Notes under the pieces: generated by a model
Seen by the model: only the letters and a program-made list of their open reading frames with translations
Databases searched by the model: none
What the model was told of the DNA's origin: nothing
Translations under genes and position numbers: made by a program
Assembly: GCA_013203045.1 (NCBI GenBank)
Contig: JABMQN010000275.1
Span: 4,515 to 68,514 of the forward strand
Reading direction: 5' to 3'
From: Chloroflexota bacterium
GTDB lineage: Bacteria; Chloroflexota; Dehalococcoidia; SZUA-161; SpSt-899
Length of the DNA: 64,000 nt
Shown here: one piece after another, positions 7,217 to 62,277 of the stretch
How positions within the stretch are numbered: position 1 is the first letter of the stretch
How the letters are laid out: each line of letters opens with the position of its first letter

Positions 7217-7233
7217 CAGGAGGACAAACGAAA

Positions 7234-18181: not shown

Positions 18182-18192
18182 GTCGCACCTCT

Positions 18193-18251
18193 TTTTCGTA
18201 GCGCGACCCTTCAGGATCGCTTTTTGGCGGGGCTAAAGCCTCGCGCTACAT
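18193..18251. repeat. palindromic extragenic repeat copy A (TIR TTCGTAGCGCGA ... TCGCGCTACAT)
   Basis: Its 11-bp terminal inverted repeats and the core CCTTCAGGATCGCTT match the longer copy at 32068..32189. Confidence 0.55.
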
Positions 18252-18259
18252 GTTAATGA

Positions 18260-20224: not shown

Positions 20225-20255
20225 ACAGCCTGTAAAAAACTGAAATTATATTTGA

Positions 20256-29038: not shown

Positions 29039-29935
29039 TTGATAATGGGACTTAGAATATACCGGGAACCCGATATTACCAAACCGGACTTGATTGCCGC
29101 CTGGCCAGGTATCGGTAATATTGGGCTGATCGCTGTCGACACCTTGAGAAGAGCCGTTGGGGCTGAACCTTTCGCAGAGATAGAGCCCTGGCATTTCTTC
29201 TATCCGAACGGGATAACCGTTCAGAATGGCGAACTCATCGATATGGGTTTTCCTCGGAGCCGATTCTTTTACAAGAAACTTGGCACAAAGGACTTGATAT
29301 TTTTTGTAGGAGAAGAACAACCCTCCGGCGGGAGAAAAGGTTACGAAATGGTTGACCTCGTACTTAATTTAGCATCGATGTTCAGGTGTCAAAGGGTGTA
29401 CACCGCCGCTGCCGCAGTTAATACCATTCATCACTCGGTAAAACCCAAAGTCTGGGCAGTCCCCAATAACAAAACCCTCATACAAGAAGTAAAACAATAC
29501 CCTAACACTGTTTTAATGAGCGATGTGGCGGGTAGAATAGGTGAGGGTAATATATCAGGACTTAACGGTCTTCTGTTGGGCGCAGCTAGCAAAAGAGACC
29601 TGCCGGGCATCTGCCTCCTCGGGGAAATCCCGGTGTACGTCTCTCAGTTCATGACACCTTATCCCAAGGCCTCGCGATCCATAATAGAGATCTTAAACCA
29701 CAACTTAGGAATTGATCCTGACCTGAGCCGATTGGACGAAATGGACCGGGAAGTCGACGAAAATATCGAGAGATTATACACTATGATTCCTCAGGAAATG
29801 AGAGATCATATCGATCATCTGAAATATGTAGAGCAGCCTGAAGCAGAATCTACTGGCAAGATAACAGAAGAGGACAAGAAAGATATCATGCAACATATCG
29901 AAGAATTCTTTAAGAAAGGCGGACAAGAGGATTGA
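29039..29935 (+). CDS. PAC2-family protein (proteasome-assembly-chaperone-2-like)
   Basis: ~300-aa PAC2-like body (PDLIAAWPGIGNIGLIAV...). Confidence 0.6.
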   Translation: MIMGLRIYREPDITKPDLIAAWPGIGNIGLIAVDTLRRAVGAEPFAEIEPWHFFYPNGITVQNGELIDMGFPRSRFFYKKLGTKDLIFFVGEEQPSGGRKGYEMVDLVLNLASMFRCQRVYTAAAAVNTIHHSVKPKVWAVPNNKTLIQEVKQYPNTVLMSDVAGRIGEGNISGLNGLLLGAASKRDLPGICLLGEIPVYVSQFMTPYPKASRSIIEILNHNLGIDPDLSRLDEMDREVDENIERLYTMIPQEMRDHIDHLKYVEQPEAESTGKITEEDKKDIMQHIEEFFKKGGQED

Positions 29936-30738
29936 CTGATGGTGATCTTCAGAAGCCTTCGCTTATAGTGATCTGGACTCACGAGGTGGGTGGTTTATCG
30001 AAGGGACTTGTTACCCATCTTGAAGAGAAACTGGGATGGGTATGCATCGAGGAGATTGAGCCAGCCGGTTTCTTCTCTCTCTCCGGTGTTGAAGTGAAAA
30101 ATGACCTCATCCAGTTCCCTGCTAGCAGATTCTATTCCTGCCTGAAAGAGAATGTCTTCTTTTTTGTAAGCCATGCTCCCAGTCGAGAACCGTACCAATT
30201 TCTTACAAAAGTTATAGATTTGGCAATTGACAGTTGTGGAATCAAGGAACTCTATACTATTGGTGGAGTGGTTACATCAGTCACTCACACCAGTCCCAGA
30301 CGTGTGTTTGGCATTGTTAATCACGCAGAGCTCAACGATACATTGACACAATGCGGGGTGGAAACGGGCATGGATTATCAGACTCCCCCCGGTGGCGGCA
30401 CAAGTCTCAGTAATTATTTGTTATGGGTCTCCAAGACAAGGAACCTCGCAGGCTGTACATTATGGGTTGAGGTGCCGTTCTATCTCGCTAACGTCCGCGA
30501 TCCTATGGCTTGCAAAAAGATGCTTGAAATCCTGAATCTCAGGTTTTCCATGGAATTGGATCTGCACCCGATTGATATTGCCATAGAAAGACTTAATACG
30601 GACATACAAAGTCTTAGGGCTGAAAACACGGATATCAGCCGATATATTGAACTTCTGGAAAGAGGTATCGCGCTCAGTGAAGATGAGGGTGAAACTTTAT
30701 CACGAGAAGTAATCAAACTCCTCTATAACTATGATTAA
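29932..30738 (+). CDS. PAC2-family protein (tandem paralog)
   Basis: Second PAC2-like ORF. Its start overlaps the upstream stop (ATGA). Confidence 0.55.
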   Translation: MTDGDLQKPSLIVIWTHEVGGLSKGLVTHLEEKLGWVCIEEIEPAGFFSLSGVEVKNDLIQFPASRFYSCLKENVFFFVSHAPSREPYQFLTKVIDLAIDSCGIKELYTIGGVVTSVTHTSPRRVFGIVNHAELNDTLTQCGVETGMDYQTPPGGGTSLSNYLLWVSKTRNLAGCTLWVEVPFYLANVRDPMACKKMLEILNLRFSMELDLHPIDIAIERLNTDIQSLRAENTDISRYIELLERGIALSEDEGETLSREVIKLLYNYD

Positions 30739-31488: not shown

Positions 31489-31908
31489 TTAATCCACAGT
31501 CTGGTTCTGCCCCGCTGCAAATGCAGCCCGAATATCTCCCGTCAAAGGAATCGGTTTGTTCGTTTTCGCATCTATCATTACAAAGGTAACATCCGCATCA
31601 GCAACCGGGGTCTCTTTTCCTTTCAGTACTAATTCCTGCCGAATGGTAGCACTCGCATTACCAAGTTTAGATACCCAGGTTCGAATCTCTATTACCTCTC
31701 CCATAAAGGCAGGCCGACGATAGTTGATATTGATGTTGACCACAGAAAAGGCGATTCCCCTTCGCTGCCACTCATCGATATCAAGACTCTCCTCCGCAAA
31801 AGACCAGCGTGCCTCTTCAAGGAATTCCAGATAGCGGGCATTATTGACATGCCCATATAGATCAAGGTGATATCCACGCACTTTAATCTCTGTGATGCTC
31901 GGTATCAT
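31489..31908 (-). CDS. acyl-CoA thioesterase, 4HBT (YbgC/FadM) family
   Basis: HLDLYGHVNNARYLEFLEEAR is the hot-dog-fold signature. 139 aa. Confidence 0.85.
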   Translation of the reverse strand: MIPSITEIKVRGYHLDLYGHVNNARYLEFLEEARWSFAEESLDIDEWQRRGIAFSVVNININYRRPAFMGEVIEIRTWVSKLGNASATIRQELVLKGKETPVADADVTFVMIDAKTNKPIPLTGDIRAAFAAGQNQTVD

Positions 31909-32416: not shown

Positions 32417-33271
32417 TTGCAATCACGTAACCACCGGGACATTTTCATGAAAAGAACTGACATAGAGAACCTCGAAACAAAATTGCTGCTGGATGCCATT
32501 TACAAACGGTATGGGTATGATTTTAGTCATTATGCCACCGCCTCACTCAAGCGGCGGATTGAACACTTTTTGAACGAAAGTAATCATGATAAGATCACAG
32601 AAACGATTCCCCGGTTACTTTATGATGAGGTATTCTTCGAAGAATTGATCCAGACCCTTTCCATCACCGTGACCGAGATGTTCAGAGATCCTTTTGTCTA
32701 CCGTGCGATCAGAGGGAAAATCATCCCCACCTTAAAAGACCTTCCCTTTCTGAAGATATGGCACGCAGGGTGTGCCACAGGAGAAGAGGTATATTCTATG
32801 GCCATTCTGCTCAAAGAGGCCGGTATCTTTAAAAATTTCCACATTTATGCTACCGATTTCAACAACCATGCTTTAGAGAGAGCAAGAGAGGGGATTTATC
32901 CTTTGAAGAACGCTCGTATAAGCACAGTCAACTATCAGAAATCGGATGGGGAAACGTCCTTTTCGGATTACTACCAATCAAAATATGACTCCGTGATCAT
33001 GAACCGTGATCTGAAGAAGAACATTACTTTTGCCAATCACAACCTCGTTACCGACTCTGTCTTCGGTGAAATGAACTTCATAATCTGCCGTAATGTGATG
33101 ATATATTTCGATAAAATACTGCAAGAACGAGTATTTCATCTGTTCAACGATAGCCTGAGCATAGGTGGATTCCTGTGCATTGGCAGTAAGGAATCCCTAC
33201 AATTCTCCGAAGTGTACGATAACTTCGAAGAGGTTGCACGCAAAGAGAGGATATACCGAAAAATCAGGTAG
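32417..33271 (+). CDS. cheR: CheR-type protein-glutamate O-methyltransferase
   Basis: SAM-binding region LKIWHAGCATGEEVYSMAILL plus the CheR N-terminal helical domain. Confidence 0.85.
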   Translation: MQSRNHRDIFMKRTDIENLETKLLLDAIYKRYGYDFSHYATASLKRRIEHFLNESNHDKITETIPRLLYDEVFFEELIQTLSITVTEMFRDPFVYRAIRGKIIPTLKDLPFLKIWHAGCATGEEVYSMAILLKEAGIFKNFHIYATDFNNHALERAREGIYPLKNARISTVNYQKSDGETSFSDYYQSKYDSVIMNRDLKKNITFANHNLVTDSVFGEMNFIICRNVMIYFDKILQERVFHLFNDSLSIGGFLCIGSKESLQFSEVYDNFEEVARKERIYRKIR

Positions 33272-33930
33272 TGACAGCAGAAAGGTCGATAGGAGATGGC
33301 TGGAAAGCTATGAGCAAGAAAAACGGTTACAAAGCAGTGGTTGTGGGGGTATCCGCCGGTGGTATGGATGCCCTTCCTCGAATTTTGAAACCTTTGCCGA
33401 AAAATTTCCCGTTGCCGATCATCATTGTTCAGCACACCCATCCAAGTGGCGATGACGGCTTTTTCGTTCGTTATCTTAACCAGAGATGCAAACTCGAAGT
33501 CATTGAGGCAACCGAGAATCAACCAATCGAAGACGGAAAAGTGTACCTCGCACCTGCCGATCGTCATCTTCTCATTGAACAAGACAGATTACTTGCACTA
33601 TCCACCGCAAGCAAGGTCAATCACTCCAGACCCTCCATCGATGTGCTATTCGAAAGTGCGGCAGATGCTTATGATTCAGGACTCATTGGTATTATCCTTA
33701 CTGGTGCCACTTCAGACGGGGCAAAGGGAATGAAAAAAATCGACGATTGTGGCGGTATAACAATAGCTCAAAACCCGGAAACTGCAAAAGCACCCGCCAT
33801 GCCCAAAGCGGCCATTGAAGCCTGTGAGATCGATTATGTACTTCCTCTGGAGAATATTCCAGAGGAGTTATTGAAGTTAACCAGAAAAGTAATCTTTACA
33901 TCTTCTCTGAATCAAGGAGATATATCATGA
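33271..33930 (+). CDS. cheB: CheB-type protein-glutamate methylesterase, catalytic domain only (no receiver domain)
   Basis: AVVVGVSAGGMDAL, IVQHTH, and the GD/GTS motifs of CheB_methylest. The real start may be ATG 33310 (MSKKNG). Confidence 0.8.
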   Translation: MTAERSIGDGWKAMSKKNGYKAVVVGVSAGGMDALPRILKPLPKNFPLPIIIVQHTHPSGDDGFFVRYLNQRCKLEVIEATENQPIEDGKVYLAPADRHLLIEQDRLLALSTASKVNHSRPSIDVLFESAADAYDSGLIGIILTGATSDGAKGMKKIDDCGGITIAQNPETAKAPAMPKAAIEACEIDYVLPLENIPEELLKLTRKVIFTSSLNQGDIS

Positions 33931-36900
33931 AAAAACCCACCATTCCACAAAACCCCCAAAGTAAGTTCTTGAGCCTGCGAGGTAAATTGACCTTACTAAT
34001 ACTACTCATCGGCATACTGCCCATAATTATTATTGGTTTCATCTCGTATAGCAGTTATGGTCAGTCCGTTACAAGCGCAAAAAAGGGAATCAGTACTTCC
34101 GAACAGAAACTATCGGATGGTTTTGTCGGCCTGAATTTGCAGAACATAGCTCATGACACAGCTAAAGAAGTTGATGAATTCTTTGAATCAACCATGGCTG
34201 ATGTTATAGCTAGTGCCAAATACTCTTTAATTGTAGATGCGACCCAGGAGTCCCTTGGTGTAGCTGAAGAGTATGGATTTTCAAATGTGCCAAAGGAAGA
34301 TATCCAAAGAGTGATGGTATCTGCTCACAACAAAGCACCGAATGCATCCGCAGACAACTACCTCGCTCTGTTAGATATGGATCACCCAGCTACTGAACAC
34401 ATCCTGCAAATGAAGAGTAGCTCAAGATATTTTATCGATTTATTCTTCACTGATGTACTTGGATACAATGCATCGGTAACCGGTCCAACCGAGCGCTTTG
34501 TCCAATCAGATGAAAAGTGGTGGAAAGACGCATGGAATGAAGGAATCAGCATTGGCGATATCGAAGATATCGATGAAGACGAGTCCACCGAAATCTGGGC
34601 ACTCAGTATAGCCGTTCGCATCGACAATGAAGCCGGTGATCCTGTAGGTGTGATGAGAGCCGTGCTGGATATAGCCGCAATTCAAGATATAGCAACAACA
34701 AATGCAGGCAAGGTTGAAAGCGGACAAGTATTGATAGTCACCGAAAACGGGAGTCCGCTGGCAGAAACCGCCTCTGAACACGATCCCAAACGGATCATGA
34801 ATAAAGGAACATGGCAAAGTGACAATGAGGTAAGGAAAAAAGTCGATTCTGTCTTCAATGCCAGCACCCGCAATGGTTCTGAACTAATTGAGGACTCTAT
34901 GATAGGATTCGCCCGTTCTGCTTCAGCAGACTACTACAGCGAAATCGAAGGTTTCAACGGATTCAGTTGGGCTGTGATCGTTGAGCAACCCCAAGAAGTG
35001 GCCTTCGCGCTTCTAGCCAGTCTAAATGAATTGGAAAATGATCTTAGTAATTCTCAGAGAGCCACGGGGATGACTATCCTTGTGGTAGCCATAGGGATGG
35101 TTCTGATTGGAATACTTATTGCTTTCAGCGTCAGCCGCAGTATTACCAGACCAATGAACCGTCTCCGTAGTGCAACTGAACAGTTCCGCATGGGTAATGA
35201 AGATATCGTAATTGATATTGATTCCAAGGATGAGGTTGGTGATTTGGCCAAAGCTTTCAATCGGATGTTATCTGAACGAAAACTGGCAAACGAGGCACTG
35301 CGCACAGAACGTGATTATTCCACGGGAATTGTTGAACGCACACCGGCCGTCATTGTAGGTATTGCACCTGATGGCTCAGTAACATTCATTAATCCCGCTG
35401 GTGAAGAGATCACAGGATACAATTCGGAAGAACTTATTGACAAGAACTGGTGGCAAACCTTCCATCCGGGCGATGAATACAAGCAAGTCAAAGAGTTATT
35501 CCAGGTTTTACACGAGGGCGGTGATACACACAACTATGAGATGACCCTGACAGCGAAAGATGGAGAGAAGCATACCTGCGAATGGAATATTATCGAACGA
35601 TTTGATGAGAGTGGCGAAATTGTAGAGATCATTGCTTTCGGAAATAATATCACGGAACGCAAACAGTCGGAAGAAGACCTTAGAAAAGCGAACGAGGAAA
35701 TCAATCTGATTCTGGAAAACGTTACTTCAGTCAGTCAAGCTATTGTGGATGGGGACTTCAGTAAAGAAATCGAACTGACCACTGAAAAACCTGAACTGGG
35801 TTCTGCCTTGCAGGAAATGATCAGGATTCTCAAGGGAGTGGTAGATCAGGCAAATACTATCGCCGCCGGTAATTATGAAATGGATATCATCCCAAGATCA
35901 GAAATGGATGAACTTGGGATTGCTCTACAAAACATGACCCAGGCCTTGCGGGAAATGAAACAGGTAAACTATAAGCAATTGTGGTTCGCCGAACGCCAGG
36001 CACGATTGAACGACGTAATGCGCGGTGAACAAGATATCCCCGATCTTGCCAGAAATCTCACCGGTTATCTGGCCAAAACACTGAATGCTCAGATGGCTAC
36101 TCTATATGTATTAAATCCGGAAGATAACAAACTTCTCTTAGTAGGAAGTTATGCCTTCACTCACCGTAAGGGTAATCCCGGCATGTTTGAATTAGGCGAA
36201 GGACTGGTAGGACAAGCAGCACTTGAAAAGGAACTCATCGTTTTTTCCAACATTCCGGAAGATTATATCAAGATTGGCTCGTCTCTGGGTGATACCATCC
36301 CTCGCAATATCATGGTGATCCCATTCCTATACGATGGTAACACTACAGGTGTTATAGAGTTGGCGTCAGTTGAAGAATTTTCTGATGATACGATCGCTTT
36401 CCTCAATAGTGTTATGGAATCCATCGCTATCGCTGTTAACTCGGCTGAGGCTCGCGTGAAAATGCAGGAATTGCTTCATTACTCACAAGAACAGGCAGAA
36501 CAACTTCAATTCCAGGAGCAGGAACTGCGAACAGCCAATGAAGAACTGACTCTTAAAACCGAAAAACTGGAAGCATCCGAAAAGGGTCTTAAGAGCCAGC
36601 GAGAAGAGTTGCAGGCAACTAACGAAGAGCTGGAAGAGAAAACACAAAAACTGCAAACCTCACAGACCCAACTCACGGCCCAACAGGAACAATTGCAGGC
36701 TGCTAACGAGGAGTTGGAGGAGAAGACCTTTTCTCTGGAAAAACAGAGGGAAGAGGTTTTCAAGAAGAACGAGCAGCTTGAAATTGCGAGTCAGGAATTG
36801 GAACTACGAGCAGAAGACCTTAGATTGGCCAGTAAGTATAAGAGCGAGTTCCTGGCGAACATGTCACACGAACTCCGCACTCCCTTGAACAGTTTACTAG

Positions 36901-38906
36901 TACTGGCACAAGATCTAGCTTCCAACAAAACAGGGAATCTTGACGAAGATCAAATGGAATCGGCAGATATTATACATAAAAGCGGGCAGGATCTACTTAC
37001 ACTTATTAATGAGATTCTCGACCTTTCGAAGATTGAAGCTGGTAAGATGCCTGTAAATATTTGCCCTGTCCTCCTCCCTGATATAGCCAACAGTATCAAC
37101 ACCAACTTCAAGCATGTCATGGCAGGGAGAGGCGTAGAGCTAATAATAAATGTGGATGAGTCCATTCCCGAAACAATCGAGACAGATCAGCAAAGGTTGT
37201 TACAGATAATCAAGAACCTTATGTCCAATGCTATCAAGTTTACCGATACTGGCAGCATTACAGTCGATTTCTTCAAGCCTGCCGCTAACGCTAATCTCTC
37301 CAGAAGTGGGCTCGATCAACAGCAAACTATCGGTATTAGTGTTACCGATACCGGTGTTGGTATTCCAAAGGAGAAGCAAAAACCAATTTTCGAGGCTTTC
37401 CAACAGGCTGACGGGAGTACTTCACGACAATATGGCGGAACCGGATTGGGGCTGTCAATTTCCAGAGAGCTTGCCAGACTTCTCGGTGGAGAGATTCAAC
37501 TGGAAAGTGAAGAGAATAAAGGTTCTAAATTCACTATTTTTATCCCAGCAGAAATGATCGAACCGGACGAAGCTGATGAACCTTCCGATACGGTATCAGC
37601 TAAATCCACAGAACAACCGCAAACCACAGAATCAAATATGGCATCTGTAAAGATTGCTGAACCGGTAACCGAGAATGACGAGAGAAAATCCGCTCCCTCA
37701 ATTAAAGACGACCGTGATGTAATCGAGGGAAACAACCGGGTGATTCTGGTCATTGAAGATGACCTCAACTGGGCCAAAACTCTTTACAAGTTCTGTCATC
37801 AAAGGAATTTCAAATGCTTGCATGCAGGAGACGGAGAGACCGGATTACAGCTTGCTGAGCAATATCAACCCACTGCCATAGTTCTGGATATCAGGTTGCC
37901 CGGGCTGGATGGATGGGGTGTCCTTGAGTTGCTGAAAGATAATTCCAACACGCGCCATATTCCGGTGCACATGATGTCAGCATCTGAAGAATCCATTGAT
38001 GCTTATAAGAAAGGCGTTATCGGATTCCTGACAAAACCGATAGACAGCAACCAGCTTGATGACGCATTCACGAAGATCGAAGACGTCATTTCACGAGACG
38101 TGAAAGAGCTTTTGATAATTGAAAAAGATGCAAAACTCCGCAAGAACATCGCGAAGCTCATTGGTGACGATGATGTAAATACAACGGCTGTTGGTTCTGG
38201 TAAACAAGCGTTAGATGAATTACGATCAAAGACTTATGACTGTATGATTCTTGATCTGGCCCTCTCCGATATATCCGGTTTCGATGTACTCAAACAAATG
38301 AACGATTCCGAGGACATTTCGGCGCCACCAGTTGTGGTATACGCAGGAAGAGAACTCACACCGGATGAAGAACTTAAGTTACAGATGTACGCCGGGTCCA
38401 TAATGGTCAAAGGTGTCAAATCTGAAGATCGATTGCTGGACGAGACAGCCCTCTTCCTCCATAGGGTCATAGATGATTTACCCGCACCCAAGAAAGAAAT
38501 AATTACTCGCCTTCACGATAAAGACAGCATCTTCGAAGGCAAGAAAATCCTGCTGGTTGACGACGACATGCGCAACGTTTTTGCCCTCTCAAAGGTGATG
38601 GAAGGTGTAGGAATGGAGATAATAAAGGCTTCCAATGGGAAGAAGGCTCTGGAGGCTCTGGAAAAAGATGCGGATGTTGATTTGGTATTGATGGACATAA
38701 TGATGCCCGTCATGGATGGCTATGAAGCTATGCATCATATCAGGGACCAGGAGCGCTTTGCCGACTTGCCCATATTAGCATTAACTGCAAAAGCGATGGT
38801 CGATGACCGCGAGAAATGCATTGCTGCGGGTGCTAATGACTATATGCCAAAACCGGTAGATGTCGAAAGATTACTCTCACTTATTCGGGTGTGGTTATAC
38901 AAATAA
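33927..38906 (+). CDS. multisensor hybrid histidine kinase: TM-periplasmic sensor-TM-HAMP-PAS-HAMP-GAF-coiled coil-HisKA-HATPase-REC-REC-REC
   Basis: 1659 aa. Two TM segments flank a ~340-aa extracytoplasmic domain. It carries an H-box SHELRTPLN, an HATPase G-box [10 protein letters not shown], and three receiver domains. Its ATG overlaps the cheB stop. Confidence 0.85.
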   Translation: MKKPTIPQNPQSKFLSLRGKLTLLILLIGILPIIIIGFISYSSYGQSVTSAKKGISTSEQKLSDGFVGLNLQNIAHDTAKEVDEFFESTMADVIASAKYSLIVDATQESLGVAEEYGFSNVPKEDIQRVMVSAHNKAPNASADNYLALLDMDHPATEHILQMKSSSRYFIDLFFTDVLGYNASVTGPTERFVQSDEKWWKDAWNEGISIGDIEDIDEDESTEIWALSIAVRIDNEAGDPVGVMRAVLDIAAIQDIATTNAGKVESGQVLIVTENGSPLAETASEHDPKRIMNKGTWQSDNEVRKKVDSVFNASTRNGSELIEDSMIGFARSASADYYSEIEGFNGFSWAVIVEQPQEVAFALLASLNELENDLSNSQRATGMTILVVAIGMVLIGILIAFSVSRSITRPMNRLRSATEQFRMGNEDIVIDIDSKDEVGDLAKAFNRMLSERKLANEALRTERDYSTGIVERTPAVIVGIAPDGSVTFINPAGEEITGYNSEELIDKNWWQTFHPGDEYKQVKELFQVLHEGGDTHNYEMTLTAKDGEKHTCEWNIIERFDESGEIVEIIAFGNNITERKQSEEDLRKANEEINLILENVTSVSQAIVDGDFSKEIELTTEKPELGSALQEMIRILKGVVDQANTIAAGNYEMDIIPRSEMDELGIALQNMTQALREMKQVNYKQLWFAERQARLNDVMRGEQDIPDLARNLTGYLAKTLNAQMATLYVLNPEDNKLLLVGSYAFTHRKGNPGMFELGEGLVGQAALEKELIVFSNIPEDYIKIGSSLGDTIPRNIMVIPFLYDGNTTGVIELASVEEFSDDTIAFLNSVMESIAIAVNSAEARVKMQELLHYSQEQAEQLQFQEQELRTANEELTLKTEKLEASEKGLKSQREELQATNEELEEKTQKLQTSQTQLTAQQEQLQAANEELEEKTFSLEKQREEVFKKNEQLEIASQELELRAEDLRLASKYKSEFLANMSHELRTPLNSLLVLAQDLASNKTGNLDEDQMESADIIHKSGQDLLTLINEILDLSKIEAGKMPVNICPVLLPDIANSINTNFKHVMAGRGVELIINVDESIPETIETDQQRLLQIIKNLMSNAIKFTDTGSITVDFFKPAANANLSRSGLDQQQTIGISVTDTGVGIPKEKQKPIFEAFQQADGSTSRQYGGTGLGLSISRELARLLGGEIQLESEENKGSKFTIFIPAEMIEPDEADEPSDTVSAKSTEQPQTTESNMASVKIAEPVTENDERKSAPSIKDDRDVIEGNNRVILVIEDDLNWAKTLYKFCHQRNFKCLHAGDGETGLQLAEQYQPTAIVLDIRLPGLDGWGVLELLKDNSNTRHIPVHMMSASEESIDAYKKGVIGFLTKPIDSNQLDDAFTKIEDVISRDVKELLIIEKDAKLRKNIAKLIGDDDVNTTAVGSGKQALDELRSKTYDCMILDLALSDISGFDVLKQMNDSEDISAPPVVVYAGRELTPDEELKLQMYAGSIMVKGVKSEDRLLDETALFLHRVIDDLPAPKKEIITRLHDKDSIFEGKKILLVDDDMRNVFALSKVMEGVGMEIIKASNGKKALEALEKDADVDLVLMDIMMPVMDGYEAMHHIRDQERFADLPILALTAKAMVDDREKCIAAGANDYMPKPVDVERLLSLIRVWLYK

Positions 38907-38918
38907 AGGAGTGATGCC

Positions 38919-40172
38919 ATGAAGGTTAAACCAAAAATCCTCATTGTTGATGACAAGGGCGAAAACCTGGTCGCGCTTGAGAAAACCCTGGCCGATCTGA
39001 ATGTGGATTTCGTACGGGCCACGTCTGGCAACGATGCACTTGCAGTAACCCTCGAGCAGGAATTTGCCCTTGCCCTGGTTGATGTGCAAATGCCTGGCAT
39101 GGATGGTTTTGAAACAGTAGAGCTAATGCGCCAGGACAAAAAAACCAGGCATATACCTATCATCTTTATATCTGCTATTTATACTGAGGAATATCATAAG
39201 ATCAAAGGGATAGAAACCGGGGCAATCGATTTTATTACCAAACCTATTAATCCCAAGATTGTACTAGGTAAAGTTCGCATATTCCTTGAACTCCATGAAT
39301 ACAAAAGGTCCTTAGAGGAACAAAACAAGATCATCACCGCTTCCCACAAAGAACTTCAGATTGCCTTGGATGAACTGGGACTAATGCATGAAGAGTTGGT
39401 GAAAAGCCAGGAACAGCTCGTTCAATCCCAGAAATTGGCAGCCATCGGTCAGCTTGTCTCCGGTATTGCACACGAAATAAACAATCCATTGATGGCGATT
39501 TCCGGTAATGCACAACTGCTTTTAGAGGACGCTGAGGATGAGGATACACTTGAAAGCCTGGAAGTGATTCGTTGTGAAACCCAGCGTGCTACTGATATAG
39601 TGCAAAACCTGCTGGCTTTTGCACGATCACACAAATCTGATAGGGATCTCGTTTCCATTAATGAGGTTGTAGAGAACGCCGTCAAGTTATGTTCGAACAA
39701 ATCGAAAATCGACAACATTCAGATAGTATACGATTTCACCAGCGACATGCCAAATATAAATATTGATTCACTACAAATACAGCAAGTCTTTCTGAATTTG
39801 ATTAACAATGCGATTCAGGCAATGACAAAAACCAAAGATAGTGGCAAGCTCATAATCCGCACACAACAACCCTCAGAAGAAACGGTTCAAATATCTTTTG
39901 AGGATGATGGGCCTGGGATTCCCGCCGAAAACATTGATAGGGTATTTGAACCTTTCTTTACAACCAAGGACATCGGTGAGGGAACCGGGTTAGGGCTTAG
40001 TATTTGTTATGGTATCATCCAAAGTCACAATGGAAAAATCTATGCTGAAAGTACAGAATCCAACGGAGCAACCTTTAATATTGAACTTCCCATTATCGAT
40101 GATACTTCAAATAACCAGTCAGATATAGCAGTCTTGGAACCGGCAGGAGCAACTCAAGATACACAAGGATAG
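38919..40172 (+). CDS. receiver-domain histidine kinase (REC-HisKA-HATPase)
   Basis: N-terminal REC ([20 protein letters not shown]), H-box AHEINNPL, and HATPase GTGLGLS. Confidence 0.8.
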
Positions 40173-40187
40173 ATAGAGGAGTAAGAA

Positions 40188-41798
40188 ATGGATGCCAAAC
40201 CCAAGATGCTAATTGTTGATGATAGAGTCGAAAACCTGGTCGCTTTGGAAAAGACTTTGGGTGACCTCGATGTTGATTTCGTGCGCGCCCTTTCGGGCAA
40301 CGAAGCGTTAGCCCACACCTTGGAGCACGACTTCGCCATTGTGCTTTGTGACGTTCAAATGCCGGAAATGGATGGCTTTGAAACCGTCGAATTTATGCGT
40401 CAGGATAAGAAGACAAAACACCTGCCTGTAATTTTTGTTTCTGCAATATACACAGAAGATTTTCACATGGTAAAAGGGATAGAGACGGGTGCTGTCGACT
40501 TTATCACCAAACCTATCATTCCTGAAATTCTTCGTGGTAAAGTACAGGTATTTCTTGATCTTCACGCTAATAGGTTGTCACTTGAGGAAGAGATCAAACT
40601 CCGAACTGAAGCAGAACAGACGATTCAAGAGCAATATGACGATATCCAAATACACACACACGAACTGGAGGCAGCTAACCAGGAACTGCGTGAAACCCAG
40701 ACAAAACTTCTGGAACTCAATCAGGAAGTCCAGGAAAGCGAAGAGAGATACCGTGACCTGTTTGAAAACGCCAATGACCTGATTCAGAGCGTTGATGCAG
40801 AGGGTAACTTCGTATATGTGAATTCCGCCTGGCTCGAAGTTCTGGGATACGAAATGAAAGAGGTAGAGAATCTGAATTTCACTGATGTCGTGCCGGAAGA
40901 AGAATGGGCTCATTGCCAGGAACAATTCCAACAAATTCTGCAAGGCGAACGCTTGACGAATATGCAGACTATTTTCTTGACCAAGGATGGAAGACATATC
41001 TACGTTGAAGGTAATGCTGGGGCGAGATTCAAGAATGGGGAATTCGTAGCTAACAGAGGAATATTCAGAGATATCACTGAGCGTAAGATCGCAGAAGAGA
41101 AACAGCTTGAACTCGACCGTATGAAACAGGAGTTCATCTCCAATGTTTCCCATGAATTACGTACGCCCCTGCACTCCCTCAAAGGGTTTGTCAAACTATT
41201 GCTTGGCGGTAAAGTGACAGATTCGGAAACACAAAGCGAGTTCCTTAGCATTATCGAGAAAGAAAGCGACCGTCTTAGCGGTTTAATAGATGACTTGCTT
41301 GATATATCACGCCTCGAATCTGGGCGTTTTAAAGTTTACAAAGAACTGGTATCATTGGAGAATATAATTCGCGACGCTATCCAAAGGGTAGGAAGTCTGG
41401 CAAACGAACGGGGAATCACCATCACTGACGAAATCCAACCAGAATTGCCAGAGATAGAAGTAGACCAAAAACGCATAAGACAGGTTGTGACCAACCTGCT
41501 AAGCAATGCCATCAAGTATAATAATGAAAATGGTAGTATTACTGTACGGAGTGAGGTCACCGATAATGAGTTGCTCGTACAGGTTGCTGATGGTGGAATT
41601 GGGATAGCTGATGAGGATATCCCGAAGCTGTTCGAAAGGTTTTATCGGGTGGAAGCTTCTGATAGAATCGAGGGAACAGGTCTGGGGCTCCATATCAGCC
41701 AGCAAATCGTCGAAGCCCATTCCGGCAAAATATGGATAGAGAGCGAGTTGGGAGAAGGCAGTACTTTTAGTTTTGCTTTACCTTTGAATGAAAACTGA
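40188..41798 (+). CDS. receiver-domain PAS histidine kinase (REC-coiled coil-PAS-HisKA-HATPase), paralog of 38919
   Basis: The REC domain is ~70% identical to that of 38919. H-box SHELRTPLHSL. HATPase GTGLGLHIS. Confidence 0.8.
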   Translation: MDAKPKMLIVDDRVENLVALEKTLGDLDVDFVRALSGNEALAHTLEHDFAIVLCDVQMPEMDGFETVEFMRQDKKTKHLPVIFVSAIYTEDFHMVKGIETGAVDFITKPIIPEILRGKVQVFLDLHANRLSLEEEIKLRTEAEQTIQEQYDDIQIHTHELEAANQELRETQTKLLELNQEVQESEERYRDLFENANDLIQSVDAEGNFVYVNSAWLEVLGYEMKEVENLNFTDVVPEEEWAHCQEQFQQILQGERLTNMQTIFLTKDGRHIYVEGNAGARFKNGEFVANRGIFRDITERKIAEEKQLELDRMKQEFISNVSHELRTPLHSLKGFVKLLLGGKVTDSETQSEFLSIIEKESDRLSGLIDDLLDISRLESGRFKVYKELVSLENIIRDAIQRVGSLANERGITITDEIQPELPEIEVDQKRIRQVVTNLLSNAIKYNNENGSITVRSEVTDNELLVQVADGGIGIADEDIPKLFERFYRVEASDRIEGTGLGLHISQQIVEAHSGKIWIESELGEGSTFSFALPLNEN

Positions 41799-41822
41799 AT
41801 AAAATATCCTGGGGGGAGTTAT

Positions 41823-42206
41823 ATGAACGGTAAAATTCTAATTGTTGAAGACGATGCAAGTGCACTGAGATTGATAGAGTTTGCTTTGCAGCAAGAACGC
41901 TATGAAGTTATCGTTGCAACCAATGGATTGACCGGGCTCAAGAAAGCTCAAACCGAAAACCCGGACCTCGTCATTCTTGATCTAATGCTTCCAGGTTTGG
42001 ATGGTTTCGAGATCTGTAGTCGATTGAGAAAGGATCCTGAAACTGAGAAAGTACCAATCCTGATACTGTCTGCCAAGACTCACGAATCAGATGTAGCGAC
42101 AGCACGCGCAGTAGGAGCAGATGCCTATCTCACCAAGTCAGGAGACCCCTCAGAGATAGTAGCCCAGGTACAGACTCTGATATCACAAAAACCCCTCATA
42201 ATATAG
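41823..42206 (+). CDS. single-domain response regulator (CheY-like)
   Basis: 127-aa REC domain only (ILIVEDD..LDLMLPGLDG..K). Confidence 0.8.
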   Translation: MNGKILIVEDDASALRLIEFALQQERYEVIVATNGLTGLKKAQTENPDLVILDLMLPGLDGFEICSRLRKDPETEKVPILILSAKTHESDVATARAVGADAYLTKSGDPSEIVAQVQTLISQKPLII

Positions 42207-42348: not shown

Positions 42349-42795
42349 TCACCTGCCAGTCGAGCCATGCCCACCAGTATCCCGCTCTGTTTTCGAAAGT
42401 TCTGCAACTTCCTCAATCGTTAGGTCTGCAAGTTTGGTGACCACCAATTGAGCAATTCGATCACCGTGCTTGACTTCAAATGCTGAGTCTTCCCCAAATA
42501 GATACATGGTTACCATCACTTCGCCCCGATAATCACTATCGATAGTGCCGAACGTAATACCAACCCCTTTCGATGAAAGCCCAGACCTCGGCCGCACCTG
42601 GACATCATATCCTGATGGTATTTCAATAGCAATCCCGGTGCTAACCAGTGTTGGTTTCCTTTCGATCACTACCTGATCTTCCCCATCGATACAGGCATAT
42701 ACATCGAAACCACTGGCACCCTCGGAACTTCGCTGAGGCAACTTAGCAGCAGATTTGAGTTTTTTGATTTTGAGAACCGATGGTGTTTGTGTCAC
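42349..42795 (-). CDS. dut: dUTP diphosphatase
   Basis: Motif III GTIDSDYRGEV and the overall trimeric dUTPase pattern. 148 aa. Confidence 0.85.
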   Translation of the reverse strand: MTQTPSVLKIKKLKSAAKLPQRSSEGASGFDVYACIDGEDQVVIERKPTLVSTGIAIEIPSGYDVQVRPRSGLSSKGVGITFGTIDSDYRGEVMVTMYLFGEDSAFEVKHGDRIAQLVVTKLADLTIEEVAELSKTERDTGGHGSTGR

Positions 42796-52040: not shown

Positions 52041-52594
52041 AATTGAGTAGGTTAATTTCGATGATAAAAGCCCAGGGCGGAGTAACTCTCGTTGAGCTAA
52101 TGGTAGGCATTGCTATAACCGGTGCAATTGGCGGCGTTATAGTAATGACGATTATACAATTGGATACCGTGGGAAGCTCCAATACAAATCGAATTGTCAG
52201 TGTTAATTATGTGCAAAATGCGGGGTACTGGATTCAAGTTGATACCAAGGTGGCTCAGACTATAGAACTGGATGCAGGGGATTCAGGTTTGCCCCTGATA
52301 TTAAACTGGGTTGATTGGGACAATACAGAGCATCAGGTCAGCTATTCTTTGGATGGTGATAAACTGCAACGTATTCAATCGATTAATAGCGGATCACCGA
52401 ATGTGCTTGTTGTTGCACAGTCCGTTGATGCTGAACCTGATTTGACCAATTGTGAATTTGTTGATGGGATGCTCAATTTCACGTTGACTACCACGGAGGG
52501 CTCTGGTACGCGGGGAAACACTGAGACCCGCGTGTTCAGTTTTAAACCGAGGGCGGAACTTGTGGTGTTGAAAGGTAATGGGGAGGAAGTCTAG
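52037..52594 (+). CDS. pseudopilin / minor pilin (prepilin-type N-terminus)
   Basis: GG/VTLVELMVGIAITGAIGGVIV. Confidence 0.7.
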   Translation: MKLSRLISMIKAQGGVTLVELMVGIAITGAIGGVIVMTIIQLDTVGSSNTNRIVSVNYVQNAGYWIQVDTKVAQTIELDAGDSGLPLILNWVDWDNTEHQVSYSLDGDKLQRIQSINSGSPNVLVVAQSVDAEPDLTNCEFVDGMLNFTLTTTEGSGTRGNTETRVFSFKPRAELVVLKGNGEEV

Positions 52595-55137
52595 TGAAAG
52601 CGGCAATATTGAACAGGGTAAAAAGAGAGTTCGGTGGGGCAATGATTTGGGTCCTGCTACTCATAAGTGTAGGAAGTCTTACGCTGCCTCCTCTTCTGTC
52701 TTTAGCAACTAGCAGTCTTGGCGCTTCCCAAATGTATGAGAAGAAGACTAATCAGGCTTACGCGGCAGATGCTGGTGTGGGGGATGGTTTGTGGGAAATA
52801 AAATATGGTGATTTGGGAACTGTGTTCCCAACCTATGACCCGTACGATTATGACTTGATTTGGACCTATAATCTAACTGATCAGAAACATGGAAATTCAA
52901 TTAATGGTTACGATACAGAAGTCTCAATAGGAAATATCTGGATTCCAAAAGATATAGCAACTCCGGGTACAGCCCAGGCACGGAGCATTATTGAGGATGG
53001 AAAACTGATAGTAACGGGATGTACCTCAGGGGATTCAACGTACCAAATTAAAATCACCTATAATCCTGAGGAAGGTGATTTGATTGTAGAATCACTCGGA
53101 GTGTGGTTACCTGCCGGTTTCACGTATGACGATGAAGTTCACAACAATAGCATGAAAGATGAGTGTGACGGAGATGACCCCCCAGTATACTGTGATGACT
53201 TGAGCCTTGCGATAGGACCTCATAAAGGTGGAACTTCCATAGTCTGGGATTTCAGTGGCACATGTGTTGCTGTTACTGATCTCCCCAATGTAGACCCGTT
53301 GGAGTTCCCGATAGAAGCGGAAATAACCTTTGAATATGATTCAGAGCAGGAAGCGATCAATCCTGCAGCGGTTGCCTGGATTGAGACAAGTGGAGTTGAT
53401 GGCATCGAGTTATCATGGGACGCTGATACCAAGATTTATGAGATCACCGCGATAGCCGGTGATGCTAGAGTTGAAGCCCATGCCGCCAAAAGTGAGGCGC
53501 GTGAACTTGGGGGGCCCATAGGCGGAGACTACTTCATCATTGGAAACTCGCTGCTTGATTACACCGATGACGAGCGTTACCGAAACAGACTTCACCAGGA
53601 AACCAGCGCCACTGTCGCCGAGGATGACATCCCATCCAGCGCCACTATAGATCGCGCTTATCTTTACTGGACAGGCTGGATGGACTGGCAACCTTATGCG
53701 GATTCCTATGAACCACCTTATCTATTCTTTGATGATGGTGACAACATGAGCGCCTGGACTTGCTCTGGCAACTTTTGGAGACCTGATAATTCGACAGGGA
53801 GCATTGAAGGACATCATGTGGGCGGTGGCACAGCCAAGTATCTCCATATGACGAAACCAGTGGATTTACATGAATACACAGATGGAGAAATTACTGTATC
53901 CTGGGATCAAAGTGTAGGACCTGGGGACCAGTTGGAAAGTACTGATAAGCTCTACTTTATCTATGATGGTGACGGTGATTTTGATAACGATAACGGTTAT
54001 GTACAGGAACTTGCTTTCAGTAATGACATTTCGCCTTCTTCTCGCGAGGTCACCATCCCTAAAGATCACCGGACTGCCGATTTCAAAATAGGTTTCTATT
54101 ATGATGGCTTTGATACTTCAGGAGAATACTGCTACATTGATAACATCAAGATCATCCACACAGCATCCGGTGAAGAGGAAACGGGTGGTGCCGGTGAGAG
54201 TGCAATGAAATACCCGGATGATCCAACCTACGAGAACCTCAGAATTCTGGTTGAGGAAACTGCCAGGGTGAATACGGTTATATTTAGCGGTACTCAAGTA
54301 ACGGCCGATGAATGGCGTATAGCTGAATCGACTGACTTACCAGGCGAGACTATTTATGAGGATCGCTGGTCTTATGCATGCCGCTATGATGCTACCGACC
54401 TTATAAATAAGTGGATTGAAGATGACGAAGATTTTGTAGATATTGCCAGCAATGGCGCTGGTGAGTATACGCTTGGTCACGTGATGACACAAAATGAGGG
54501 AAACCCAGAGTATTCCATTGACCTCTGGCCAGCGGGCACTACCGGGTATCCCCTCGCGTCCCCGGCCGAATGGCCCGACCCACCACAAAGGCATGACTTT
54601 TGTTATGGTGGTTGGTCACTGATCCTTATCTATTCCAGTGCAGAAACGGAAGGCCATCAGTTATACCTCTTTGATGACACATTGGCTGAAATCTGGCACT
54701 ATAATCCTGATGTCGATGGTGACGGTGAAGCCGGCATTACAGTTGATGGGTTCTTGGTACCGGATGGTATCACCACTGATGACGAAGTAGCAAGGGTCAC
54801 CGTATTCGCAGGTGAAGGAGATCGAGGAATTACTGGAGATAAATTCTTCTTCAACAAAGGAATTGCCTTATCAAGTGATACCAGTTCTTTTAACAATATA
54901 TGGGACTCTCAATTACCTGGAGGTTTGGTACCGGGTATAGATATTGACACTTTCACCATCAATCACCCAACTTTGGAAGCAGGAGCCACCGAAGCTCATA
55001 TTGACTATTTGGGTATTAATGAGAATCCTGACCAATACTATTCGGCCAGTGACGAATTTACCCCAGTCTATGTTATTCTCTCTTTCCGTAGCGAAGTCAC
55101 CACTGGTGGAACCCTCGATTACTTACTGGAATTCTAA
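52594..55137 (+). CDS. large pilus-associated protein (PilX-like N-terminal hydrophobic segment; possible tip adhesin)
   Basis: 847 aa. N-terminus EFGGAMIWVLLLISVGSLTL is PilX-like (no Glu5). The body is rich in D/G/T/Y. Its start overlaps the upstream stop. Confidence 0.55.
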   Translation: MKAAILNRVKREFGGAMIWVLLLISVGSLTLPPLLSLATSSLGASQMYEKKTNQAYAADAGVGDGLWEIKYGDLGTVFPTYDPYDYDLIWTYNLTDQKHGNSINGYDTEVSIGNIWIPKDIATPGTAQARSIIEDGKLIVTGCTSGDSTYQIKITYNPEEGDLIVESLGVWLPAGFTYDDEVHNNSMKDECDGDDPPVYCDDLSLAIGPHKGGTSIVWDFSGTCVAVTDLPNVDPLEFPIEAEITFEYDSEQEAINPAAVAWIETSGVDGIELSWDADTKIYEITAIAGDARVEAHAAKSEARELGGPIGGDYFIIGNSLLDYTDDERYRNRLHQETSATVAEDDIPSSATIDRAYLYWTGWMDWQPYADSYEPPYLFFDDGDNMSAWTCSGNFWRPDNSTGSIEGHHVGGGTAKYLHMTKPVDLHEYTDGEITVSWDQSVGPGDQLESTDKLYFIYDGDGDFDNDNGYVQELAFSNDISPSSREVTIPKDHRTADFKIGFYYDGFDTSGEYCYIDNIKIIHTASGEEETGGAGESAMKYPDDPTYENLRILVEETARVNTVIFSGTQVTADEWRIAESTDLPGETIYEDRWSYACRYDATDLINKWIEDDEDFVDIASNGAGEYTLGHVMTQNEGNPEYSIDLWPAGTTGYPLASPAEWPDPPQRHDFCYGGWSLILIYSSAETEGHQLYLFDDTLAEIWHYNPDVDGDGEAGITVDGFLVPDGITTDDEVARVTVFAGEGDRGITGDKFFFNKGIALSSDTSSFNNIWDSQLPGGLVPGIDIDTFTINHPTLEAGATEAHIDYLGINENPDQYYSASDEFTPVYVILSFRSEVTTGGTLDYLLEF

Positions 55138-61890: not shown

Positions 61891-62277
61891 CTAACGCAGG
61901 GAGGTTTCTTGCTGTTGGGAGCGCATCACTGCTGCCACACGTGCAAGGAGTTCATCGATAGCAAAAGGTTTGGTAAGATAGTCATCAGCTCCAAGGTTGA
62001 GTAATTCAATCTTGTCCGTCAAATCATTCTTTGCACTAAGCATTATTATTGGTACTTCAGATGATTTGCGAATCTGTTGGCATACTTCCAGGCCGTCGGT
62101 CCCAGGTAACATGATATCCAGGATCACCAGATCTAGCTTTCTTTCCGTGAAAAACTTGAGTGCAGATTCGCCATCCTCGGCTGCAATAACATCAAAATCA
62201 CGCGCTCTCAGGTTAGCGCTGACGAATTTTAAAATCAAGGGATCGTCATCAACGACGAGGATTGTTGGATTAGTCAT
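61891..62277 (-). CDS. stand-alone receiver domain protein (OmpR-like REC without DNA-binding domain)
   Basis: ILVVDDD..LDIMLPGTDG..K followed by an OmpR-type linker, then a stop. There is a 4-nt overlap with the upstream kinase gene. Confidence 0.7.
   Translation of the reverse strand: MTNPTILVVDDDPLILKFVSANLRARDFDVIAAEDGESALKFFTERKLDLVILDIMLPGTDGLEVCQQIRKSSEVPIIMLSAKNDLTDKIELLNLGADDYLTKPFAIDELLARVAAVMRSQQQETSLR

Follow-up and report, generated by a model that had tools for sequence, protein, structure and literature searches.

The window, i.e. the whole 64-kb stretch of DNA that was analysed, contains an operon of six genes, all located on the forward strand, whose domain content, as described in an earlier note on this DNA, was borne out by domain profile searches. 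The following genes were distinguished: (i) cheR (32447..33271; ATG start, while the mechanical ORF begins at TTG 32417), encoding a protein with CheR_N and CheR domains; (ii) cheB (33310..33930; alternative GTG start at 33271), encoding a CheB_methylest domain only, without a receiver; (iii) a gene encoding a hybrid histidine kinase of 1659 aa (33927..38906), with the domain order TM, dCache-like, TM, HAMP, PAS, HAMP-like, GAF, coiled coil, HisKA, HATPase and three REC; (iv) a gene of a 417-aa REC-HisKA-HATPase kinase (38919..40172), recognized by domain profile matches; (v) a gene of a 536-aa REC-PAS-HisKA-HATPase kinase (40188..41798), whose REC domain and linker are paralogous to those of the preceding gene; and (vi) a gene of a single-domain response regulator of 127 aa (41823..42206; Response_reg, 98.8 bits). 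The tight packing of these genes was confirmed, since the intergenic gaps downstream of the hybrid kinase are only 12-24 nt, and an ATGA overlap is present at the cheB/kinase junction (33927-33930). The second ATGA overlap, claimed for the cheR/cheB junction, does not exist: the sequence there is TAGTGA, and the two genes would overlap by 1 nt only if GTG 33271 were the start codon. The likelier start of cheB lies 38 nt downstream at ATG 33310, given that a database protein of 98% identity has been called at 206 aa.

An orthologous contig carries the same six genes with the same flanking genes, and the module to which they belong recurs in well over 100 loci; judged by these comparisons, the arrangement is not a matter of chance. 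No exact copy of the kinase was found in the assembly collection. The base composition of the operon region resembles that of its surroundings, so the region is not an island. Promoter and terminator scans of the region performed no better than shuffles and are therefore uninformative on the operon boundaries.

The product of cheR matches the Pfam profiles CheR (PF01739; 138.7 bits) and CheR_N (PF03705; 35.7 bits), both above the gathering cut-off (27 in each case). Its nearest solved structure is B. subtilis CheR 5ftw (E 4e-33), with which the SAM-binding motifs align; the protein can also be aligned to 1bc5 and carries the GEE..Y and CRNV.IYF motifs. It is a putative protein-glutamate O-methyltransferase. 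Against the enterobacterial chemotaxis CheR equivalog (NCBIfam NF007902) it scored 81.3 bits and did not reach the cut-off of 435. The median identity of the window CheR is 52% to module CheRs from other phyla vs. 31% to two CheRs adjoining CheW/MCP genes; by sequence identity, the module CheRs form a group of their own, a kinase-associated clade. The product of cheB matches CheB_methylest (PF01339; 202 bits) over positions 1-174 of the 174-position profile. No Response_reg match was obtained in this protein of 206-219 aa, which is thereby unlike the canonical CheB. In alignment A1 its residues Ser15, His42 and Asp136 do not vary, and they correspond to motifs of the catalytic domain in solved CheB structures. 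The best 120 of 7800 CheB homologues are all 187-222 aa long and all receiver-less. The window CheB is thus described as a predicted methylesterase/deamidase consisting of the catalytic domain only. Both enzymes are intact, with conserved catalytic motifs (the CheB triad and the CheR SAM motifs).

The hybrid kinase shares 35-48% full-length identity with module kinases from 27 other species. Its extracytoplasmic dCache-like sensor (aa 124-352; 34296..34982) is flanked by two hydrophobic segments (about aa 21-41 and 381-402); with dCache_1 it scores 31.5-36.3 bits, which falls short of the Pfam cut-off of 45, and the ortholog in locus L001 bears a precomputed dCache_1 match. Domain profiles place behind it a HAMP domain (aa 402-448), a PAS domain (aa 468-580) and a HAMP-like pair (aa ~595-676; 32.7 bits), which together span 35130..35954. 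They are followed by a GAF domain (aa 702-837; 36030..36437; GAF_2, 68.3 bits), a HisKA and HATPase_c core (36840..37553), whose H-box, with His981 at nt 36867, is nearly invariant in the family, and three receivers (approximately aa 1272-1385, 1393-1512 and 1541-1653; 37740..38885; Response_reg, 199 bits in three stretches). The acceptor Asp and the Lys of these receivers are invariant (alignment A3), and REC2 is degenerate in the window, with an EKD pocket and Ala replacing Thr. The window kinase has GAF immediately ahead of the kinase core and its receivers at the C-terminus; this core, GAF included, recurs in 28/28 module kinases. HAMP occurs in only 16 of the 28 and CHASE3 in only 8, so the sensor varies within the module; the sensors are of the MCP type (4HB_MCP, TarH, dCache, NIT and CHASE3). 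CHASE3 is absent from the window kinase, which has the dCache-like/HAMP/PAS input instead.

Altogether, the operon encodes six receivers, all with the acceptor Asp and the conserved Lys, where the earlier note had counted at least five. Its term phosphorelay is only half right, because a Pfam search found no HPt domain among the products of the operon. Likewise, the two REC-kinases are paralogs as regards the REC domain plus linker (60% identity over 180 aa), whereas their kinase cores share only 31% identity. A REC-kinase without the coiled coil and covering at least 80% of the 417-aa protein was found in 58 loci, which marks this protein, at the level of sequence, as a conserved fourth component of the module; it also gives a full-length match to NCBIfam LvrB, with a score below the cut-off of that model. 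The window operon has no GGDEF/EAL gene; REC-PAS-GGDEF-EAL genes occur in some module loci (L032, L015).

Between the GAF domain and the phosphorylatable His lies a conserved Glu-rich coiled coil (aa 845-968; 36459..36830), composed of three 28-aa units and considered a candidate methyl-accepting segment. The motif NEEL recurs in it at aa 871, 899 and 927 (nt 36537, 36621 and 36705). In 140 unique kinases this helix of ~100 aa is ungapped as far as the H-box and keeps a constant spacing to the phospho-His, and one heptad position is Leu at a frequency of 0.87-1.0. Its length changes in 28-aa (four-heptad) steps, the number of units being 1, 2 or 3 (three in the window). According to the sequences, there is a single Leu per heptad, the 'a' positions are polar, and the solvent-exposed Glu pairs are 74-91% conserved. 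AlphaFold2 (monomer) predicts a single helix over aa 820-999 (pLDDT 71-92). An MCP-like helical hairpin (four-helix) model was set aside, given the variable number of units (1, 2 or 3), the unbroken heptad phase and the single predicted helix, with the reservation that a monomer model cannot settle between a hairpin and a continuous helix.

The coiled coil was detected in 147 kinase ORFs and is absent from 126 other kinase ORFs of the same loci, among them the REC-kinases of the window and its second PAS-GAF kinase. The segment is not represented by any Pfam family; at E values up to 10 only unrelated eukaryotic coiled-coil noise was obtained and no MCPsignal match, therefore no homology to MCPs can be claimed. 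The coiled-coil HMM does match a genuine MCP, the only one matched out of ~7, in its first methylation helix (ATSEELSATTEEI; E 1.9e-6), and Glu-rich coiled coils easily resemble one another. The window kinase contains both Glx-Glx-x-x-Ala-Thr (REELQAT) and the 10-residue MCP consensus (TAQQEQLQAA). As a conserved feature of the family, the canonical methylation consensus was expected but rejected by a shuffle test: across the 140 kinases, the 10-mer occurs 0.007 times per protein vs. 0.018 in shuffles, and the half motif 0.46 vs. 0.51 times. EExxA[ST] is 4-fold enriched over shuffles, yet reaches only 0.16 per kinase. A CheB-CheR-kinase fusion, a kind of protein that the earlier note had proposed for comparison, bears NEE[LIF] heptads related to the window coiled coil; nearly all named homologues of the tract are annotated as 'CheB/CheR fusion protein'.

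Contrary to what the earlier note had implied, the operon is not unique but represents a module widespread in many bacterial phyla and including studied Pseudomonas members. As defined by sequence comparison, four parts make up the module. Its hybrid kinase combines a variable sensor with GAF, coiled coil, HisKA, HATPase and 2-3 REC, and is accompanied by a CheR of its own, a CheB that lacks a receiver and at least one REC-kinase. In a CheB-centred scan of species-representative genomes, CheB was receiver-less in 82/83 loci and CheR lay within 300 bp in 73; a same-strand GAF-coiled-coil kinase was present in 44 of the 49 loci flanked on each side by 6 kb or more, to which this count was confined. 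A reciprocal scan with the coiled coil alone as the query yielded a GAF-coiled-coil kinase in 80/80 loci, and cheR together with receiver-less cheB adjoined it in 29 of the 33 loci whose flanks each extended over 3 kb or more. The synteny is thus reciprocal in 88-90% of evaluable loci from many phyla, and the window shows the same pattern of cheR and receiver-less cheB beside a same-strand kinase, plus a further REC-kinase. About 10% of the cheR-cheB pairs of this clade have no adjacent coiled-coil kinase, and a few coiled-coil kinases (L093, L105) have no cheRB; locus L028 encodes the CheB domain and a REC-kinase as one fused protein. The 84 CheB-centred loci gave two MCP matches, both on the opposite strand, and no CheW match, while the same CheW query did detect CheW in the kinase-centred loci L133 and L134, where MCP, CheW and a CheR are found nearby. 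The absence of MCP, CheA and CheW from the operon was confirmed and extends to the whole window.

The earlier note predicted that the kinase, and not a chemoreceptor, is the partner of CheR and CheB. This prediction is strongly supported by the reciprocal synteny conserved across phyla and further by the kinase-specific Glu-pair helix, which has a relative fused to CheB-CheR elsewhere; against it stands the canonical MCP consensus, which is not family-wide. We consider it probable that the operon belongs to a conserved module of non-chemotactic signalling in which CheR/CheB tune a kinase helix, a mechanism that we infer as follows. The dCache/HAMP/PAS/GAF input would alter the packing of a predicted continuous helix of ~160 residues, running from the GAF domain to the DHp helix with His981, and one Leu per heptad combined with polar 'a' positions would make the coil marginally stable. 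CheR would methylate the Glu pairs that occupy positions b and c of the units, in the window roughly E893/E894, E900/E901, E903/E904, E928/E929 and E931/E932, while CheB would demethylate them and may deamidate neighbouring Gln residues. Neutralisation of the charge would reset the kinase output and thus provide a slow memory, or adaptation, of the two-component pathway, as in chemoreceptors. The hybrid kinase would hand on phosphoryl groups to its own receivers, to both REC-kinases and to the single REC protein, and the output in other species would include REC-PAS-GGDEF-EAL regulators. No paper showing or explicitly proposing methylation of the kinase was found in the literature searched, which left out Garcia-Fontana 2013 (JBC) and the BmsA paper.

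It is unlikely, though the best placed of the alternatives, that CheR and CheB act on another part of the module, i.e. a REC-kinase, the response regulator or the HAMP/GAF region of the large kinase. The REC-kinase is nearly as conserved in the module as the large kinase, the L028 fusion joins it directly to CheB, and the coiled coil lacks a conserved canonical consensus; however, no part other than the coiled coil combines restriction to cheRB-linked kinases with a relationship to the tract of the CheB/CheR fusions, the REC-kinases differ in architecture and share only ~33% identity, and HAMP is missing from many of the kinases, as noted above. The chance is slim that the two enzymes serve a conventional chemoreceptor array encoded elsewhere and that their proximity to the kinase reflects co-regulation only. 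Such an array would agree with the fact that only 64 kb of the genome is in view and with the gene content of L133 and L134, but is opposed by the reciprocal synteny, by the lack of CheW around cheB with a working query, by a window CheB without a receiver for CheA to phosphorylate, by the ~31% identity between the module CheR and CheRs from a chemotaxis context, and by the finding that a chemotaxis role of P. putida CfcB/CfcC has been ruled out (PMC4951495). It is equally doubtful that the coiled coil is merely a rigid signal lever between GAF and DHp, with CheR and CheB binding or regulating without catalysis or persisting as relics: a constant length, steps of 28 aa and a single helix, as predicted, would be required of any transmission element, but the CheB triad and CheR SAM motifs are invariant over very large evolutionary distances and a lever alone does not require conserved exposed Glu pairs.

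A CheR/CheB-tuned kinase helix would matter beyond this operon. In textbooks, chemotaxis owes its memory to the reversible methylation of glutamates, which is regarded as a feature of chemoreceptors. Were the same enzymes to tune a large family of ordinary sensor kinases spread over many phyla, adaptation and memory would be open to two-component signalling in general. For the broader proposal we see even prospects: the coiled coil would be a previously undescribed methyl-accepting module that gives kinases chemoreceptor-style adaptation in many phyla, including Bacteroidota, usually regarded as lacking flagellar chemotaxis, and the pathogen Leptospira interrogans, and in the CheB/CheR fusions this tract would serve as the substrate in cis. 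The hint from the gene neighbourhood has in any case been narrowed to a candidate segment (aa 845-968) and named Glu pairs, and the known Pseudomonas members of the module govern biofilm, c-di-GMP and motility.

One of the closest known systems is cfcABCDE of Pseudomonas putida, a cluster that acts on the REC-GGDEF-EAL regulator CfcR and encodes the CHASE3/GAF hybrid kinase CfcA, CfcB (CheR), CfcC (CheB) and the REC protein CfcD (PMC4951495, PMC6849547). In both systems a GAF hybrid kinase adjoins cheR, cheB and a further REC protein, and the P. putida role is non-chemotactic. The ANMSHEL H-box is shared with CfcA, where it is readable from published mutagenesis primers, and other module members resemble the cfc system in CHASE3 (8/28 kinases) and in REC-PAS-GGDEF-EAL genes at some loci. 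The window differs in its dCache-like/HAMP/PAS/HAMP input in place of CHASE3, three coiled-coil units, two REC-kinases, the order cheR-cheB-kinase and the lack of a GGDEF/EAL gene. From its architecture, the window kinase is presumably orthologous to CfcA; homologues sought with the coiled coil together with the H-box were for the most part short fragments, with no named Pseudomonas protein among the matches. Mutants in other cfc genes retained the CfcA-dependent crinkly phenotype (PMC4951495), and CheR/CheB are therefore modulators at most. The same four-gene core (hybrid kinase, CheR, CheB, hybrid kinase) appears, as described in PMC8175716, in the clusters of BmsA (Pseudomonas alkylphenolica) and P. 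brassicacearum 3082-3079, linked there to biofilm and motility by a mechanism termed yet to be elucidated; the window differs from them as it does from CfcA.

With the chemoreceptor adaptation system the module shares the two enzyme families, sensor domains of the MCP type and, in the proposed substrate, a long helix with exposed Glx pairs 7 residues apart. In contrast, it has no MCP signalling domain, CheA or CheW, its CheB has no receiver, and its helix is predicted as a continuous coil into the DHp, with another consensus motif, instead of the four-helix hairpin bundle of MCPs. The CheB/CheR fusion proteins (JGI 'two-component system, chemotaxis family, CheB/CheR fusion protein') likewise combine receiver-less CheB, CheR, an NEE[LIF]-type tract and a kinase core, but unlike the window module they hold enzymes, tract and often the kinase in one polypeptide, with PAS and no GAF, and the CheR domain of such a fusion is only 29% identical to the window CheR. 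Among these systems, the window operon adds a member to a widespread module with studied Pseudomonas representatives.

Within the operon (32417-42206, + strand), six genes were distinguished by Pfam domain content: (i) cheR (32447-33271; CheR_N and CheR), whose start is likely ATG 32447; (ii) cheB (33310-33930; CheB_methylest only); (iii) a gene of a 1659-aa kinase (33927-38906; a sub-threshold dCache-like part, HAMP, PAS, GAF, HisKA, HATPase_c and three REC domains); (iv) a REC-kinase gene (38919-40172; 417 aa; REC, HisKA, HATPase); (v) a REC-PAS-kinase gene (40188-41798; 536 aa; REC, PAS, HisKA, HATPase); and (vi) a single REC gene (41823-42206; 127 aa). The dCache-like part of the 1659-aa kinase is flanked by two hydrophobic segments, and a further HAMP region (two stretches, 32.7 bits) lies between PAS and GAF. 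Pfam analysis found no HPt domain among the six proteins. The kinase start overlaps the cheB stop (ATGA, 33927-33930), as the earlier note had reported, whereas the second ATGA, which it placed at the cheR/cheB junction, is absent, the sequence there being TAGTGA. The in-frame ATG of cheB is located at 33310, where a database protein of 206 aa (98% identity) also begins, so this junction is read as a 38-nt spacer. Apart from that junction and the count of at least five receiver domains, which was wrong (three in the kinase, plus three proteins bearing a single REC), the gene and domain description given in the note was essentially right.

The operon, the base composition of which is ordinary, is bordered on both sides by - strand genes, one for a thioesterase (31489-31908, divergent) and one for a dUTPase (42349-42795, convergent). 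The neighboring genes are metabolic (periplasmic binding protein, metallophosphoesterase, two PAC2, thioesterase, dUTPase and AMP-ligase genes), and the remaining large ORFs of the window show no relation to chemotaxis. A tandem PAC2-family gene pair with a 4-nt overlap (29039-30738, + strand) is kept in the orthologous contig L001. Elsewhere, an aldehyde:ferredoxin oxidoreductase gene lies between two paralogous APH-kinase/SCP2 fusion genes (16808-21626, - strand), and no Pfam family matches an 847-aa ORF (52594-55137, + strand) at E <= 1e-5.

The window CheB has 7800 homologs at E <= 1e-10, and each of the best 120 of these is 187-222 aa long. The orthologous contig, labeled as a Chloroflexi MAG, carries six genes and flanks identical in kind to those of the window; in a Desulfobulbaceae MAG and Desulfonema limicola the same components are present in a different gene order. 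Scanning with the CheB alignment (one genome per species) yielded 80 loci, including those of Bacteroidota, Desulfobacterota, Acidobacteriota, Cyanobacteria, Planctomycetota and Nitrospirota, as well as Leptospira interrogans, Clostridium yunnanense, Brevundimonas, Rhizobium, Duganella and Zobellella. CheB-centered loci were annotated with our own ORF calls and phmmer/HMM maps: a stand-alone CheB occurs in 82 of 83 loci, a CheR at most 300 bp away in 73, a same-strand kinase composed of GAF, coiled coil, kinase core and two to three REC domains in 63-64, and a further REC-kinase without the coiled coil in 59. Where at least 6 kb was available on both sides, the kinase was found in 44 of 49 loci; real exceptions include L009, L016, L021, L026 and Nostoc loci. 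Two architectures among the compared loci are of separate interest. In a Sericytochromatia MAG (L028, 8985-11429) a REC-kinase has the catalytic domain of CheB fused to its N terminus (CheB-REC-HisKA-HATPase, 814 aa), which hints at control of CheB by its REC-kinase partner and feedback through it. Four Geobacter/Geobacterales loci (L042, L047, L049 and L029) contain, beside cheR-cheB and a full kinase, extra sensor-GAF proteins that lack a kinase core and stop a few residues past one QQEELQQTNEELEER unit; these could be kinase-less methyl-acceptors or decoys.

Metagenome contigs were scanned with nothing but the coiled coil (pattern QQE[EQ]L[QRE]xxNE). In all 80 resulting loci the match lies inside a GAF-coiled-coil protein, which is a kinase wherever the contig is long enough, and in 29 of the 33 loci that extend at least 3 kb to either side the kinase is adjoined on the same strand by cheR and a receiver-less cheB. 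Taken with the CheB-centered result, the association is therefore reciprocal, at approximately 90% each way. The module kinases form an orthologous family (35-48% full-length identity) with variable, MCP-type sensors: among 28 surveyed, CHASE3 and 4HB_MCP_1 were each found in 8, dCache in 4, TarH in 2, NIT in 1 and HAMP in 16.

In a kinase alignment anchored on the H-box, the approximately 100 preceding residues align without gaps across phyla, and the final NEEL is always located 54-51 residues upstream of the His. Kinase lengths vary in steps of one complete 28-residue unit, and a kinase has one, two or three of these; in the window kinase there are three, and their NEEL motifs lie at aa 871, 899 and 927. 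Among 140 unique sequences, the heptad phase of the coiled coil is unshifted from -98 to -28 and Leu occupies one position per heptad in 87-100%; polar residues (N, T/A, E, Q) fill the remaining core position, and Glu pairs are found at b/c. AlphaFold2 (monomer, 44-sequence alignment) predicts aa 820-999, from the GAF end through His981, as a single helix (pLDDT 71-92). No Pfam model was assigned to the coiled-coil segment. Precomputed Pfam lists for coiled-coil fragments (P0121-P0360) name PF27881, PF28019, PF28159, PF28175 and PF28256, none of which was returned by local Pfam scans; one of them might already cover the helix. Across the module loci the coiled coil is present in 147 kinase ORFs and absent from 126 others, including the two REC-kinases of the window and its second PAS-GAF kinase (62274-63995). 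The latter (region 61891-63995, - strand; 573 aa, PAS-GAF-HisKA-HATPase), whose gene overlaps that of a single REC protein downstream, is without cheR/cheB and lacks the Glu-rich coiled coil because its GAF ends approximately 20 aa before HisKA; it provides a negative control within the window.

In favor of a methylation site, the coiled-coil Glu pairs are exposed, spaced by 7 residues and conserved at 74-91%. In the window kinase, REELQAT fits the classical Glx-Glx-x-x-Ala-Thr motif and TAQQEQLQAA the 10-residue consensus, both being forms of the chemoreceptor methylation consensus. The former is given in PMC8396549. A coiled-coil HMM matches an MCP of contig L134 in its first methylation helix (E 1.9e-6), which is also in favor. 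Against such a site, only this one of about seven MCPs was matched, the canonical MCP consensus shows no enrichment over shuffled sequences across the whole kinase family, and EExxA[ST] reaches just 0.16 occurrences per kinase. Judged from the sequences, the kinase family appears to have a motif of its own, and its likeness to MCP sites is one of motif style, for which we do not claim homology. Also in favor of methylation is a Flavobacterium CheB-CheR-kinase fusion in which ELQAANEEIVSSNEEFQTLNEELETSKEEIEATNEEL is located after CheR; this tract has 252 homologs, and nearly all source-named ones are CheB/CheR fusion proteins. At one locus of Flavobacterium xanthum (L014, 8013-11684), the cheR/cheB/kinase module with its genes unfused occurs together with a CheB-CheR-kinase fusion of 1224 aa, in which NEE[LIF] heptads recur every 7 residues.

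In the best-supported reading, the kinase's own helix is probably the target of CheR and CheB: by acting on its Glu pairs they would alter the charge on a marginally stable coil running straight into the DHp helix, and this change would determine kinase output. The proposal, in which we infer substrate, sites and effect, rests on the observed gene content, synteny, motif and intact enzymes, and on the predicted continuous helix. The suggestion of the earlier note that the kinase is the CheR/CheB substrate is thus reasonable and better grounded, though unproven. It is unlikely that the substrate is another protein of the module, such as a REC-kinase, or a kinase region other than the one bearing the Glu pairs. 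Methylation of an unlinked MCP is very unlikely. phmmer searches with the MCP signaling domain of contig L004 and an E. coli CheW sequence gave zero matches in the 64-kb window, in line with the earlier note, which saw neither in the operon; the queries work, since they match in L133, L134 and L147. Relative to the window CheR, module CheRs have a median identity of 52%, and two CheRs encoded beside CheW/MCP 31%. In two of the contigs with MCP matches (regions 698-4878 of L133, and 6352-8064 and 16316-19893 of L134), two coiled-coil kinases lack an adjacent cheB and lie close to MCP, CheW and CheR genes; these are possible hybrids in which a chemosensory cluster is combined with the kinase module. 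A purely structural helix accompanied by non-catalytic enzymes is very unlikely: the CheB Ser/His/Asp positions are kept and invariant in the CheB alignment (A1), the protein aligns to 3sft, 1chd and 1a2o, and the window CheR, whose best alignment partner is the B. subtilis enzyme 5ftw, keeps its SAM-binding motifs.

No report of kinase methylation was found in the literature searched, two relevant subscription papers being outside its reach. The wiring is not singular; the operon is a further member of a known, widespread module, and its value lies in a precise, testable candidate methylation site. The cfcABCDE cluster of P. putida includes genes of a hybrid kinase with CHASE3 and GAF (CfcA), a CheR (cfcB), a CheB (cfcC) and a REC protein (cfcD) (PMC4951495; PMC6849547); a chemotaxis role of CfcB/CfcC was ruled out, and mutants in cfc genes other than cfcA retained the crinkly phenotype (PMC4951495). 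According to PMC8175716, P. brassicacearum has this same set of four genes, and the CHASE3/GAF kinase BmsA of P. alkylphenolica affects biofilm and motility by mechanisms "yet to be elucidated". The modules of Zobellella (L032) and of locus L015 include REC-PAS-GGDEF-EAL genes resembling CfcR.
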